Shown here piece after piece: positions 31,028 through 60,693 of a DNA stretch of 64,000 bases. The notes under the pieces are model-generated. The model was given only the letters and a program-made list of their open reading frames with translations. It ran no database searches and was not told the origin of the DNA. Each line of letters begins with the position of its first letter. The first letter of the stretch is position 1. This DNA comes from Escherichia phage REP1: the sequence record OQ174500.1, one strand, 5' to 3'. A program made the translations under genes and the position numbers.

Positions 31028-31035
31028 TATAAATA
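31028..31035 (+). promoter_or_regulatory. late promoter TATAAATA for soc
   Basis: Exact TATAAATA about 30 nt upstream of soc ATG with AAGGAG RBS between. Confidence 0.7.
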
Positions 31036-54679: not shown

Positions 54680-55336
54680 TTATTTAGCCCTTCCTAATAT
54701 TCTGGCCGCCTGGGCACATATTGATTCAAGGCGGTCATTACTTATATGATCATTTCTATACCAGTACATGGTTATCGTTCCAGCATAGATATTATCCAAA
54801 TTAAAATATGGACAACTGTACATGTAGTTTATTTCAGGAGTAGGCTTTTTAGTTGGTAAAAAAGCAAATTTTGAGTTGGAATAATAATGACGTCCATTTA
54901 AATGAACTGTATATTCATCCATAGTTTTATCAACAGGATATCCTCCAAGTGATTTTTCAGTTATTGTTGAAGGTAATCTTCCTTCGTATGCTATAATATC
55001 AACAAAATAGTTTAAGTTTTTAGGGCGGAAAGAATACACCGCACTAAAGTCTGCCTCAGATGATATATGAACTATCTGGAGTTGTTCCAGGGCGACAGAT
55101 TCAAAGCGTGCATTTCTTTCCTTTTCAATAATTTCACTGTATGTTTCATACTTTGATTGCTTATAGTACTCAAAGAAACTATCTCCCCTATACCAAACAA
55201 TCGCCATCATAAATAAAAGAATTACGACAGCTACCCGGGAAGCAAGAACCTTCCCGGTAGCGTTATCTTTGAACAAGCGATCTAGAACACCAAACAGAAT
55301 ATCAGAGGGCGAAAATGATATTCTAGGTGCTGCCAT
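54680..55336 (-). CDS. t: holin T
   Basis: 218 aa; single TM segment VAVVILLFMMAIVWY; matches T4 holin. Confidence 0.92.
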   Translation of the reverse strand: MAAPRISFSPSDILFGVLDRLFKDNATGKVLASRVAVVILLFMMAIVWYRGDSFFEYYKQSKYETYSEIIEKERNARFESVALEQLQIVHISSEADFSAVYSFRPKNLNYFVDIIAYEGRLPSTITEKSLGGYPVDKTMDEYTVHLNGRHYYSNSKFAFLPTKKPTPEINYMYSCPYFNLDNIYAGTITMYWYRNDHISNDRLESICAQAARILGRAK

Positions 55337-55367: not shown

Positions 55368-56153
55368 TTATACTCTTGAACCATATATTGTACCAACTTT
55401 AGTCCAAGATGGAGCATTACCAGTAACAGCTTTACCAGCAGCGCCGCCGTTATATTCTGATCCTTGACCGCGAATATTACATTTACCTCCTGCGGCACCG
55501 GCATCACCACCATTCCCGCCATTATAGATACCATTGACAGACCCTTTACCGGGCGCAGAAATAGTACCAGCAGTAGCACCCTGTTCCATATTAGCAGACC
55601 CACCAGCAGCACCAAATGGACGACCACCTCCACCGCCAAAAGTCAATCTCATTTGTGAAAAAGGAGAGTAGTATCCGCCGCCACCGCCGCCACCGCCACC
55701 TGCGATAACACCATTGTTATTAATACGTAATCTAGTTCCAATTCCGTTATTTATTGCAGTTCCTCCTGCTCCGCCAGCAGAGTTATTTCCACCATTCCCG
55801 CCGCGACCCCAAACATGCACGCCTGAATTGATATTAAGTGTCACGTATGCATTAGTTAATGAACTAGGAAAATCTAAGCAAGGTTGCCCAGCTGATGAAG
55901 AAACAATATTTCCTGTAATAGTAACAACAACAGGAGTACTACCTTGAGATTTGAGATAATTTATTAGCGTGTCTTTATTATATGAATTACTAGCGCCAAT
56001 ACTGTAATATACTTCTTTAGATTGCCCAGCCATTGAACTCATCCAACCGGGAACTGAAACACGAACTGCTCTCATCGCAGCATCCATCCAACGTTGTCCA
56101 GTTTCATTCACGGCAGATTCGCCAATCCAGCCAGGAACACCTACAATTGCCAT
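55368..56153 (-). CDS. 38: long tail fibre tip adhesin gp38 (T2/T6 type) with glycine-rich motifs
   Basis: 261 aa; several Gly-rich blocks (GGGGGGGGGYY, GGGGGRPFGAAGG, NGGNGGDAGAAGG) separating variable segments. Confidence 0.88.
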   Translation of the reverse strand: MAIVGVPGWIGESAVNETGQRWMDAAMRAVRVSVPGWMSSMAGQSKEVYYSIGASNSYNKDTLINYLKSQGSTPVVVTITGNIVSSSAGQPCLDFPSSLTNAYVTLNINSGVHVWGRGGNGGNNSAGGAGGTAINNGIGTRLRINNNGVIAGGGGGGGGGYYSPFSQMRLTFGGGGGRPFGAAGGSANMEQGATAGTISAPGKGSVNGIYNGGNGGDAGAAGGKCNIRGQGSEYNGGAAGKAVTGNAPSWTKVGTIYGSRV

Positions 56154-56161
56154 TAAAAATC

Positions 56162-56182
56162 CTTAGAGGGCCGAAGCCCTCT
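56162..56182 (-). promoter_or_regulatory. hairpin AGAGGGCTTCGGCCCTCT between genes 37 and 38 (attenuator or processing stem)
   Basis: GC hairpin in the 30-nt intergenic space on the - strand. Confidence 0.4.
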
Positions 56183-56183
56183 T

Positions 56184-59100
56184 TTACATAAGTTTAGATT
56201 CAAGTTCTTTTACACGAGAAGAAAGTGTTTTCACAGCTTCAACCAGAAGAGCAATCTGGGATTGAGAAGAAACAGTGAGTATTTTATTACCCTTAATATC
56301 TTCAACTTCACGAACTGCTTCTGGTAAAACATCTTGCAGTGTTTGAGCCACAATACCCGCTTCAGTTTGAACAATTTCACCGCCTATATAGTCAGCTTTA
56401 TCATAGATTAAACCATCAAGCTGTTCAACCTTTTCAAGAGCATTTTCAATAGGTCTGAAATTAGATTTCAAACGAATATCAGAACGAATATAAACGTTTG
56501 GGGCATTTATATTCATGTCAGAATAAGTGTCACCCGTTTGGAATCTCATTCGGCGTGCGGCATTAGTAATGATATCAAGAACTCCGTCAGCGGATTGTTT
56601 AATTCCGGTATCATTATCACCAAATGCTATACTATTTCCACCAAGTGCGTTATTGATATTAATACCAAATGAATTTGTTTGATTAATACCAGCTACAGTA
56701 GCATTATTTACTACAAAGCGGTTAGCTCCACCTGGAGTTTTTTCAAAGTAAGCAATATAGTTAGTTTCATCTGCAATTTCAATGCGGTTACCGCGAGAAG
56801 CATCACCAGCATGAAATATTCTCATATTTCTCGGGTTAGCACCAGACTTATCAAAGTTAATACTTCCATTATTTTTGATGTTAAGGCCATTATAAAACTC
56901 TGATACCCCAGAAACGCTCATAGAGTTTGAAATAGTTACTTTACCTGAATCGATATTGATAGAAAAAGGTCTCAAGCTATTATAAGAACCGGAGGCTTTA
57001 GTTTTATCAGTATCGGTATTTTTATCTGTTAATAATATATGGAACGTAGTACCATCATTATAAAACAGAGCAGCTGCAGAGCCACTTTCGTCGCCGTTAG
57101 ATTTGTGACGGAATCCTATAGTAGTATTTGCCACAAAAGTTGCATTTGTAGAAATATTAGAACTACCTGCATCAAAAACGCCTGAGCTATTATTAAGAAG
57201 TTTAAAAACACGACCTTTAACAGTATCTACAGGAAGCTCTTCTACTGGTGATTGTGTAGGCCCATATAATCCATGAACTACTACTGAAGCGTTTTCTGAA
57301 GTGCTATATTCTAATGTAAGTCTATTTAAATAAGTGCCACAATTAATATAAACATCATACTCATCGCCTGAGGTATTAATATACGCAATATCTTTAATAG
57401 CATCTGTTTCGCGTTGCCATAAAACACCATTAATTCCTTTAGGGCTGTTATTACCTGAACGCAATACAATTTCATTAATTGTTGCTTGTCTAAAAGTACC
57501 AACGTTAAATCCAGAACCACCAGTAATTTTAAATTGAACTGTAGCCACACCTTGAGGCATAGTTACTGTTGCCAATTTATACCAACCGCTATCGACAGAA
57601 TAATTAATCCAGCCGGTAGTTACTTTACGGTCTAAAGTAGTGTTTAAGTTAGCAAAATTACCAGAACCGTTGGTAATATTACCGTCAGTTCCTAGTTGGG
57701 CATTTCCGACTTTAAGAGGTTTACTGATTGACACGAAATTATCGCTTATAACAAGACCGTGTCCATAAGATTGACTATAAAGCGATAAATCACTTCCAGC
57801 GCCACCAAGACCAACATACCACGATCTAATTCCAGCTTTAGAACCTTGTAAATAATTAGCAGAAGAAGATGAAGGAGAATCTAGAGTAAGCGCTGCATTA
57901 CGTTCATTAATAGTTACTGGACATATCATTTTAATAGTTTTAAGACTATTACTTACTTGTAATAATCCTGTACCAGATCCAGAATCTCCTAAATGAACAT
58001 CATGCGACATTTTAACTGTGCCGGTGTTCAGTTCTATTATCAATGGTCTAAGATTACTTATACCGCCTGATTCTCCGGCACCTTTAGGAGTCGGGATAAT
58101 ATAAAGATTACTTTCCGAACGGCGGAAAATAGCACCATATTCAGCATTCCAAATTCTTAATGCATCAGCTGTTCCACCAATTTTTACCTGTCCAGTAATA
58201 GAAGAACCACCTTGGACAAACAAACCATTAGACATGGTAACATTGCCACCAAAAGAACCTGTACCAGAGGCACTTATATTTCCGAGCCCGACAATATGTC
58301 CAGTTTCGACAGTTCCGTTAAATTTAAAGTTAACCGGACCTACTGTTTGACCTGACGCAGGATTAGTACGTTGAGCGTAGAAATAATAACCTTGTGAATC
58401 TGAAACTTCGAATACAGTTTCTCTATTACCTGGAGTTGAGTTAAATGAGTTACCCCATGCTTTAATGGTTACAGTATTTTTATTCTGACCATTACGAGTG
58501 CCTGCATCCCAGTTAATGGTTTTTGTTCCGTCAACACCTGTAGGCGCTTTAAATGACAAAGCATTGGTATTGTCATCACCTGATAAAAATAACCCGGTAC
58601 GCATTGAAATACGTTGGGTTGAGTCAAATGTACCATCTGCTCTAATAGCAACTCTATTAGACCCAGTTTTAATATCTAAAATACCTGGCTCAACAAGAAG
58701 TCCATCGCCCATGTTAACAGACATACGACCCGTGCCACGGAAATAGTGATACATTTTAGAATTACTGCTATAACCGATATGAGTCTGACCGTCGCCGTTA
58801 TTATTATTACCATCAATATCGGTGCGTGCAGTAAACATTGCTTGGTTGTTATTTGGGAAATCCCAAGTAGAACCGGAATCTCGACTATAACCAACCATCA
58901 ATTTTTTAGTACTATTAATACCATTATTCAAAATGGTAGCGGATGAAATACCGTTAGCCATCAGGTCATAAACGCCATCACGGACCCATTTAATACCAGT
59001 ATCGTTATCGCCAATTGCAATACCAATGGAAATGGCAGACTCTAAAGGATAACGCCCATTTGTACCATTATCAGGAAGACCTACTGAAATAGATTTACCT

Positions 59101-59990
59101 GCGGTAATACGTCCAGAGGTATCAAACGCCCACTGGAAAGACGAAGGTCCTACGCCGGTCCACCAAGAAATTTCTTGCGGCTTTCCCGAACGACAGTCAA
59201 CTATTTCATGGAAAATGCTAGAAGTATTTGAAGCCCGCATTTTACGCATGTAGTTCAATCCGTTTGTATCACGGTCAGAACCATCTGCTGGTGGATTATA
59301 AATCCAAGTAGGTAAAGAAACAATGTCATAACCCGTGTCATTATTCGGTATAAAGGTTTTAGAACTCAGGTTAATATTTTTTGTATTGACGCGCGGTGCA
59401 GAAACAAATCCAGTTGCCGAGTTAATATTACCTGAAGCCGAAATATTACCTGCACGGACTTCAATACTGCCATTATCTACAATAAAACTACCGTTTCGAT
59501 TAAAAGTCCAATATTTTGAATCACCAGATTCATTGATATATTGAATTTTAAAACTTCCTTCATTTACTAACGTACCAACAGAAAAAGTTCCATCTTTATA
59601 GCGTTGTTTAATTAGCGGATGGTATTCTGAAGTAGAAGTAGTTGAACTCAAATCGGTAAAGATAGGAGCTTTATTTTTATGTTGGTTTGCCCAAGCACCA
59701 TTACCAGCAGTTTTAGGTAAAAATTCAATATATTTTCCTGCATAAACAAACTGGTTTCCATTAAGATTATATGTTCCATTTTGTAAATAATCACCAGTTT
59801 GAGTGATATTTCCACTGATATTACCGCCAGCGGAAATGCTTAAGTCAATGATATTTCCTGAATCATCTTTAGTAAAAATTGTTCTATCTTTTAAGTTTAT
59901 AGCCAATTCACCTTCGGCTAATACTGAAGCAGCAGGACGTGCACCTGCGATTTTGCTTCTTTTAAATTGTATTTGTTTTAAAGTAGCCAT
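56184..59990 (-). CDS. 37: long tail fibre distal subunit gp37 with C-terminal intramolecular chaperone-like domain
   Basis: 1268 aa; N-terminus and central blocks match T4 gp37; divergent C-terminal part ending ...ALLVEAVKTLSSRVKELESKLM. Confidence 0.92.
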   Translation of the reverse strand: MATLKQIQFKRSKIAGARPAASVLAEGELAINLKDRTIFTKDDSGNIIDLSISAGGNISGNITQTGDYLQNGTYNLNGNQFVYAGKYIEFLPKTAGNGAWANQHKNKAPIFTDLSSTTSTSEYHPLIKQRYKDGTFSVGTLVNEGSFKIQYINESGDSKYWTFNRNGSFIVDNGSIEVRAGNISASGNINSATGFVSAPRVNTKNINLSSKTFIPNNDTGYDIVSLPTWIYNPPADGSDRDTNGLNYMRKMRASNTSSIFHEIVDCRSGKPQEISWWTGVGPSSFQWAFDTSGRITAGKSISVGLPDNGTNGRYPLESAISIGIAIGDNDTGIKWVRDGVYDLMANGISSATILNNGINSTKKLMVGYSRDSGSTWDFPNNNQAMFTARTDIDGNNNNGDGQTHIGYSSNSKMYHYFRGTGRMSVNMGDGLLVEPGILDIKTGSNRVAIRADGTFDSTQRISMRTGLFLSGDDNTNALSFKAPTGVDGTKTINWDAGTRNGQNKNTVTIKAWGNSFNSTPGNRETVFEVSDSQGYYFYAQRTNPASGQTVGPVNFKFNGTVETGHIVGLGNISASGTGSFGGNVTMSNGLFVQGGSSITGQVKIGGTADALRIWNAEYGAIFRRSESNLYIIPTPKGAGESGGISNLRPLIIELNTGTVKMSHDVHLGDSGSGTGLLQVSNSLKTIKMICPVTINERNAALTLDSPSSSSANYLQGSKAGIRSWYVGLGGAGSDLSLYSQSYGHGLVISDNFVSISKPLKVGNAQLGTDGNITNGSGNFANLNTTLDRKVTTGWINYSVDSGWYKLATVTMPQGVATVQFKITGGSGFNVGTFRQATINEIVLRSGNNSPKGINGVLWQRETDAIKDIAYINTSGDEYDVYINCGTYLNRLTLEYSTSENASVVVHGLYGPTQSPVEELPVDTVKGRVFKLLNNSSGVFDAGSSNISTNATFVANTTIGFRHKSNGDESGSAAALFYNDGTTFHILLTDKNTDTDKTKASGSYNSLRPFSINIDSGKVTISNSMSVSGVSEFYNGLNIKNNGSINFDKSGANPRNMRIFHAGDASRGNRIEIADETNYIAYFEKTPGGANRFVVNNATVAGINQTNSFGININNALGGNSIAFGDNDTGIKQSADGVLDIITNAARRMRFQTGDTYSDMNINAPNVYIRSDIRLKSNFRPIENALEKVEQLDGLIYDKADYIGGEIVQTEAGIVAQTLQDVLPEAVREVEDIKGNKILTVSSQSQIALLVEAVKTLSSRVKELESKLM

Positions 59991-60661: not shown

Positions 60662-60685
60662 TGTATGCCCCTTTATTTTAATAGT

Positions 60686-60693
60686 ATTTATAA
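60686..60693 (-). promoter_or_regulatory. late promoter TATAAATA for gene 36
   Basis: Reverse complement of tatttata; followed by AAGGGG SD and ATG. Confidence 0.65.

Follow-up and report, generated by a model that had tools for sequence, protein, structure and literature searches.

Gene organization around g38

The DNA analysed here, henceforth the window, is a 64,000-nucleotide stretch from Escherichia phage REP1 (OQ174500.1), and the phage that carries it is a Tequatrovirus. On the minus strand of the window, an open reading frame running from an ATG to a stop codon spans positions 55368 to 56153 exactly and encodes a protein of 261 residues. This protein, gp38, is identical at 261/261 positions to the deposited entry WBY52762.1 ('tail fiber protein [Escherichia phage REP1]'), which belongs to a cluster of 68 members at 90% identity that includes the proteins of vB_Eco_NR1 (NR1) and IME339. 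Many of the phages carrying a near-identical gp38 were isolated on Shigella. When the whole gene was compared at the nucleotide level with a phage genome collection from which REP1 was absent, the best match reached 96.4%. Our literature search for publications on phage REP1 or REP4, including adsorption and plating data, found none.

The gene, g38, lies between g37 (56184-59990) and the holin gene t (54680-55336, 218 aa), and all three are on the minus strand. The ORF downstream of g38 was recognized as holin T with E=1e-116, and the same gene order is found in T6, T2 and the Bas phages. The features of the locus are as follows.

60685..60692, minus strand: TATAAATA, a match to the late-promoter consensus of T4 type, located upstream of g36 (pattern search)
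56184..59990, minus strand: g37, distal half-fibre subunit of 1268 aa, predicted to be capped by gp38 (Pfam gp37_trimer, Gp34_trimer and Peptidase_S74; gene order)
56187..56483, minus strand: gp37 aa 1170-1268, predicted intramolecular chaperone domain (Peptidase_S74, PF13884, over aa 1170-1227, E=8e-14), starting at S1170 in SDIRLK
56165..56182, minus strand: UUCG-loop hairpin with a 7-bp stem, located after the g37 stop and before the g38 ribosome-binding site (fold of -13.4 kcal/mol)
55368..56153, minus strand: g38 coding sequence, 261 aa plus stop, for gp38, the receptor-recognising adhesin of the long-tail-fibre tip (ORF, Pfam, PHROG)

The ribosome-binding site of g38, AAGGA, is located at 56160-56164. 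Judged by energy, the 61-nt stretch between g37 and g38 does not stand out as a significant RNA structure (z-score of -1.08). The hairpin within it is kept with a different stem sequence in T6, Bas35 and Bas38, compensatory changes that support it, and the NR1 record annotates the equivalent hairpin as a terminator. The TATAAATA motif occurs only twice in the 64 kb, at 31028-31035 (plus strand) and at 60685-60692 (minus strand), against an expectation of 10.7 from shuffled sequences, and at least two copies were present in 100/100 shuffles. The late transcript of g36-g37-g38 likely starts at the copy at 60685-60692.

gp38 belongs to the T2/T6-type adhesin family

The original prediction placed the protein in the T2-type gp38 family, and profile searches bear this out. 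The Pfam family GP38 (PF05268) is matched with E=5.8e-71 and 239.2 bits (cut-off of 25), covering all 218 profile positions, while Gp38_N (PF21721) is matched by aa 1-42 with E=8.2e-18 and 64.6 bits (cut-off of 25). The PHROG family phrog_2056, labelled 'tail fiber protein; host specificity', is matched with E=2e-103. Two proteins of solved structure were also retrieved with phmmer, the gp38 chain of the S16 crystal (6f45_D, E=4e-50) and the receptor-binding domain of PP01 gp38 (9v85, E=7e-32). Together with the gene order g37-g38-t, these matches support, at the level of sequence, the reading that the ORF encodes a gp38 adhesin of the T2/T6-type family.

An AlphaFold2 model of gp38 computed with 64 homologues had a pLDDT of 93.4 and a pTM of 0.84. 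Searching with this predicted model, Foldseek returned 6f45_D (TM scores of 0.82/0.86) and 9v85_C (0.75/0.87) and no significant match besides these two. Sequence and predicted fold thus show a three-domain model of gp38, composed of a helical attachment domain, a beta-helix and a polyglycine-II sandwich. The solved gp38 proteins of Salmonella phage S16 (PDB 6F45) and E. coli phage PP01 (PDB 9V85), both of which bind OmpC, have the three-domain architecture and the polyglycine-II sandwich in common with REP1 gp38. By contrast, they share only 41-45% sequence identity with it and differ in their loops and receptor. The domains map to the window as follows.

56016..56153, minus strand: N-terminal attachment domain, aa 1-46 (Gp38_N match), with short helices predicted by AlphaFold2 at 10-18, 23-29 and 38-41
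55809..56015, minus strand: first part of the predicted beta-helix domain, aa 47-115 (AlphaFold2 strands), with Y66, L67, S69, V77 and A88 specific to REP1 and slur07
55434..55808, minus strand: glycine-rich specificity domain, aa 116-240, predicted polyglycine-II sandwich with receptor loops (composition, entropy, Foldseek)
55371..55433, minus strand: conserved C-terminal strands predicted to close the beta-helix, aa 241-261 (AlphaFold2 model, entropy, alignment)

The attachment domain contains three tryptophans, W9, W22 and W37, which are shared by 61/64, 61/64 and 36/64 homologues, respectively. In the S16 structure, three tryptophans of the gp38 attachment domain dock into gp37 (PMC6851490), and aa 1-46 of REP1 gp38, with W9, W22 and W37, would dock onto the gp37 trimer. 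The chaperone domain of gp37 is expected to be cleaved off by its own activity, leaving the tip for gp38. At the five positions of the beta-helix that are specific to REP1 and slur07, the other members of the REP1 cluster have W66, I67, A69, I77 and T88, and they have T249 in place of S249. This serine (in GNAPSW; window position 55409) is a threonine in all close relatives and lies within the C-terminal strands, outside the predicted loops.

Conserved glycine blocks frame the variable segments

Of the 261 residues of gp38, 60 are glycine; aa 116-240 contribute 46 (in 125 residues) and aa 1-115 contribute 11 (in 115 residues). The glycine runs are located at 118-119, 121-122, 127-128, 130-131, 152-160 (G9), 173-177 (G5), 184-185, 212-213, 215-216, 222-223 and 236-237. 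To profile conservation, gp38 was aligned with 104 full-length homologues and the mean column entropy was computed over aa 116-240. Glycine columns averaged 0.63 bits versus 1.72 bits for non-glycine columns (Mann-Whitney p=7e-8). The individual blocks GRGGNGG, poly-G (G9), GGGGGRPFG and GGAAG had entropies of 0.32, 0.49, 0.23 and 0.42 bits, respectively, and the variable segments at aa 161-172, 182-211 and 224-235 had 2.74 (the highest of the family), 1.90 and 2.28 bits. The conserved glycine blocks around variable segments are real and far above chance. The original prediction that poly-Gly blocks frame short variable segments is therefore correct as to the framing, but not as to the length of the third segment, which extends over about 30 residues and has glycine motifs inside it. 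In the S16 gp38 crystal structure, the number of glycine motifs is 10, not 5 (PMC6851490). The longest motif of REP1 gp38 is encoded here.

55674..55700, minus strand: G9 run, aa 152-160, encoded by mixed GGN codons (on the plus strand, at 55675-55700, CCGCCGCCA repeated 2.6 times, imperfectly)

The counterpart of this run in S16 gp38 is the central helix 151-GGGGGGGG-158 (PMC6851490). The repeat coding for G9 is of a short trinucleotide type with no homopolymer, and family members vary little in length there; a change in its length by slippage could in principle occur.

Five receptor loops have been defined in the crystal structure of PP01 gp38 (PMC12892980). Loops A-E of REP1 gp38 were placed by alignment to PP01 gp38 together with the predicted model, and the positions listed are predicted positions.

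55773..55790, minus strand: predicted loop A, aa 122-127, GNNSAG (PP01 loop A, W119-I124; PMC12892980)
55641..55670, minus strand: predicted loop B, aa 162-171, YSPFSQMRLT, in variable segment 2 (PP01 loop B, Q161-V170; PMC12892980)
55584..55601, minus strand: predicted loop C, aa 185-190, GSANME (PP01 loop C, N184-W189; PMC12892980)
55524..55538, minus strand: predicted loop D, aa 206-210, VNGIY (PP01 loop D, N204-Y209; PMC12892980)
55455..55478, minus strand: predicted loop E, aa 226-233, NIRGQGSE (PP01 loop E, N225-S231; PMC12892980)

Loop B, which contains R169, forms a beta-hairpin in the AlphaFold2 model, with strands at 160-165 and 168-173.

The variable segments are of the Tsx type

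We compared REP1 gp38 with the gp38 proteins of phages whose primary receptor has been assigned experimentally. Tsx is the primary receptor of T6, Bas35, Bas36, Bas37, Bas39 and Bas43 (PMC8594841, BASEL S5 table; PMC12032242), while OmpF serves Bas38, OmpA serves Bas45, M1 and FL18, and FadL serves T2 (PMC8594841; PMC12032242). Within aa 116-240, the proteins of the Tsx-dependent phages Bas39 and JK38 match REP1 at 124/125 positions and those of T6 and Bas35-37 at 102-105/125 positions (82-84%), with no indels. Bas43, another Tsx phage, is at 70%. Among phages with other receptors, the OmpA phages Bas45, FL18 and M1 are at 71%, 67% and 57%, T2 (FadL) is at 49%, and T2 and Bas38 (OmpF) together span 48-49%. 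A domain identity of about 70% is no guide to the receptor, since Bas43 (Tsx) and Bas45 (OmpA) score 70% versus 71%. The alignment with the Tsx-dependent phages revealed that the Tsx-type set of variable segments is present in REP1 gp38.

Over aa 116-240, gp38 of NR1 is identical at 125/125 positions and in its DNA as well, and all five predicted loops are the same. The gp38 of the Shigella phage JK38 is identical to that of Bas39 (FriedrichMiescher); both are equal in length to REP1 gp38, identical to it at 252/261 positions and share its five predicted loops except for R169K in loop B. This is their sole difference in the specificity domain, the others being seven substitutions in aa 66-90 of the beta-helix and S249T, and R169 itself is present in T6 and Bas35-37. 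For Bas39, the primary receptor was shown to be Tsx by knockout plating (BASEL S5 table; PMC8594841), and for JK38, Tsx/Kdo was found by RB-TnSeq (bioRxiv 10.64898/2026.04.02.716166). T6 gp38, the classical Tsx adhesin, also has the same length as REP1 gp38 without indels. Segment 2 is identical at 11-12/12 positions in T6 and Bas35-37 (aa 161-172 are unchanged in NR1 and Bas35-37, with one change in T6), and these phages also have loops D and E unchanged. It is the attachment and beta-helix half of T6 and Bas35-37 that represents another allele, only 32-33% identical over aa 47-115, and T6 gp37 has 994 aa versus 1268 aa for REP1 gp37, so that a different gp37 tip matches a different gp38 attachment half.

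Because the loops match those of NR1, differ from Bas39 and JK38 by R169K only and carry the R169 of T6 and Bas35-37, the primary receptor of REP1 gp38 is very probably the nucleoside channel Tsx, as for T6, and not the FadL used by T2. T2 gp38 (FadL/OmpF), after which the family is named, has family membership, fold and gene position in common with REP1 gp38, and its attachment domain is identical at 45/46 positions. However, its specificity domain is at 49% and its segment 2 at 0/12, and thus its receptor class differs from that of REP1. More generally, the FadL- and OmpF-specific types (T2 and Bas38) were rejected for REP1 on segment 2 identities of 0/12 and 1/12 with 48-49% in the domain. 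The OmpA-specific types were rejected likewise, segment 2 being identical at only 2/12 positions for type 1 (Bas45 and FL18) and 2/15 for type 2 (M1), and both the EGSL insertion and the M1-type YWNASITRYRYRYVV being absent from REP1 gp38.

The original prediction had proposed an alignment with gp38 of other phages as the way to the receptor. With T2 and T6 compared, the outcome is T6-like and points to Tsx, so the label 'T2-type' is apt for the family but not for the specificity allele (49% identity to T2 versus 82% to T6 over aa 116-240). It had also foreseen that segments identical to those of a characterised gp38 would make the case one of confirmation. This is almost exactly what was found, R169K being all that separates the variable segments of REP1 gp38 from those of Tsx-dependent Bas39 and JK38. 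The segments being nearly identical to those of characterised Tsx binders, the finding is a confirmation rather than a novelty: gp38 of REP1 is already known through an exact deposited protein, a known family, solved structures and Tsx-type loops.

g38 is a recombinant gene

The two halves of g38 have different nearest relatives. No mismatch to slur07 occurs from window position 58050 down to 55846, a stretch of 100% nucleotide identity that takes in the distal 1.9 kb (about 620 codons) of g37, the hairpin between the genes and the first 102 codons of g38. No mismatch to NR1 occurs from 55862 down to 55410, that is, over g38 codons 98-248 with the whole glycine-rich domain; the 6 residues at which NR1 gp38 differs are all outside the specificity domain. 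The two stretches overlap in a short interval.

55846..55862, minus strand: predicted crossover interval of 17 nt, codons 98-102 (last NR1 mismatch at 55863, first slur07 mismatch at 55845)

From this pattern of matches, g38 is a clean recombinant: the gp37 tip and the attachment half of gp38 are of slur07 type, and the specificity half joined to them is of NR1/Bas39 type. The crossover precedes the first glycine motif by about 14 codons. S249 matches neither parent. The gp38 of slur07 has 263 aa and a specificity domain of the Bas43 type, a second Tsx-type allele set that is about 70% identical to REP1, and the exchange would therefore have swapped one Tsx-type loop set for another. The mosaic agrees with the modular exchange described by Trojet et al. 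(PMC3157838), and likewise with engineered swaps confined to the distal half of g38 (bioRxiv 10.64898/2026.04.02.716166). With its crossover a short distance upstream of the glycine-rich domain, it is a tidy natural case of the modular exchange known for the gp38 family. Two patches of g37 on the minus strand, at 56910-57660 and 56312-56611, have only 53-80% nucleotide identity to NR1 and Bas39, elsewhere the closest genomes, versus 100% to slur07, and upstream of 58050 g37 departs from slur07 too. By its patchwork of matches, gp37 is itself mosaic, with three sources or more.

At the DNA level, Bas39 g38 is only 92% identical to REP1 g38, with a dS of 0.30 and a dN of 0.022. This divergence indicates an old lineage under purifying selection, and the dN/dS of 0.07 identifies the ORF as a real gene. 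In the specificity domain, the dN to Bas39 drops to 0.0036 at a dS of 0.31, which argues that the loops are strongly conserved inside a receptor class.

Proposed adsorption pathway and alternative explanations

In the adsorption pathway that we propose, gp37 would trimerise aided by its C-terminal S74 domain, and this domain, from what is known of the family, would then cleave itself off at about S1170. A single gp38 monomer would cap the new gp37 tip of each long tail fibre by way of its N-terminal three-helix domain. The glycine motifs would form polyglycine-II helices packed into a rigid three-layer lattice with the five variable loops at its far end, where they would bind to an outer-membrane beta-barrel protein by its extracellular loops in a reversible, first step of adsorption. 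Once several fibres are bound, the short tail fibres would be released and bind irreversibly to the LPS core. Taken as a whole, the reading of g38 as the recombinant gene of a Tequatrovirus gp38 adhesin with the family fold and Tsx as receptor is very likely correct.

One alternative keeps the adhesin but has it bind something other than Tsx alone, be it OmpA or a broadened, PST-like range of Tsx with OmpA/LPS or a Shigella or Yersinia protein. Few loop substitutions can alter or widen specificity (PMC3157838; bioRxiv 10.64898/2026.04.02.716166): Q206L turns the OmpF specificity of RB51/RB68 gp38 into OmpW specificity (bioRxiv 10.64898/2026.04.02.716166), and a few changes in HVS2/3 add OmpA to the range of PST gp38 compared with T6 (PMC3157838). 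Some doubt about Tsx persists for this reason, as R169K is located in predicted loop B. Moreover, the nearest non-Tsx relatives are the type-1 OmpA adhesins of Bas45 and FL18 (67-71% over aa 116-240), which Lutz et al. put beside the Tsx clade (PMC12032242), and the many Shigella isolates among the carriers of near-identical gp38 would suit a target in that host. Yet the OmpA-type segment 2 is shorter (NRGKLIF versus YYSPFSQMRLTF, 2/12 identical) and segment 3 of that type has a 4-residue insertion, neither of which applies to REP1. Furthermore, REP1 has the T6 residues Q167 and M168 where PST has 167R and 168I (PMC3157838), and both tested phages with a domain identical at 124/125 positions depend on Tsx. 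We therefore regard this alternative as unlikely. Less likely still is that the particular chimeric allele of REP1, with its slur07-type half, Bas39-type half, R169 and private S249, has acquired a receptor range unlike that of its Tsx-dependent relatives, such as an added OmpA or a Shigella-specific target after the manner of PST or RB68.

A T4-type gp38, that is, a chaperone of tail-fibre assembly located outside the virion, is favoured only by the labels of homologues, several records reading 'distal long tail fiber assembly catalyst' or 'tail assembly protein'. We give it next to no credence. Direct comparison with T4 gp38 (NP_049864) revealed no similarity (BLASTP E=16 over 23 residues) and refutes this reading at the sequence level, and the T4 RefSeq entry itself notes that the 'gp38' of the T2 subfamily is unrelated to that of T4 and is the adhesin. 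The adhesin reading is further favoured by the Pfam family and by the similarity to crystal structures in which gp38 sits on the tip of gp37, as well as by a partner gp37 with a self-cleaving S74 chaperone domain in place of the T4-type receptor-binding needle. Because REP1 gp38 is unrelated to the T4 chaperone, the 'assembly catalyst' labels that many homologues bear are misannotations that have been carried over. The chances are even, by contrast, that gp38 sets the primary porin while the practical host range on wild strains is limited elsewhere, by shielding through O-antigen or capsule, by the gp12/LPS-core step or by host defence. The BASEL study found the LPS deep core to be the terminal receptor of all these phages and O-antigen and defence systems to affect plating strongly (PMC8594841), and phages with identical Gp38 differ in how they infect the strains of the ECOR collection (PMC12032242). 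On the other hand, exchange of gp38 alone suffices to switch the porin (bioRxiv 10.64898/2026.04.02.716166), and gp38 is the only adsorption-specificity gene identified in the window. This explanation complements the assignment of gp38 as a Tsx-type adhesin and does not contradict it.

Consequences for annotation and host range

That variable loops determine receptor specificity, as originally proposed, is well supported (PMC3157838, PMC6851490, PMC12032242 and bioRxiv 10.64898/2026.04.02.716166), and swapping the distal half of gp38 alone is enough to switch the receptor (bioRxiv 10.64898/2026.04.02.716166). As far as the primary outer-membrane receptor is concerned, g38 may reasonably be called the likeliest determinant of host range in the window. 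The short tail fibre gp12, which binds the secondary LPS receptor, should lie outside the window, since this is what T4 gene order predicts and the ORF list contains no tail-fibre-sized ORF other than g34-g37.

On the strength of the predicted receptor, the phage can be labelled a Tsx-using, T6-type adsorber, which aids the choice of non-redundant cocktails and foresees resistance by loss of tsx. The assignment also corrects the widespread labels 'assembly catalyst' and 'hypothetical protein' on identical proteins; beyond annotation it is of little import.

On the plus strand, several antisense ORFs of 45-93 aa are found within g38 (55464-55947; for example, 55464-55658 and 55714-55947), with translations rich in Pro, Thr and Ala. 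We rejected them as genes: they are by-products of GGN codons read backwards and show no sign of being genes. Finally, many gp38 homologues in the databases are assigned to bacterial assemblies (E. coli, Shigella, Enterobacter and even Bacillus cereus) on contigs of 100-400 kb, which most likely represent DNA of lytic phages that was co-assembled with, or contaminates, bacterial genome projects.
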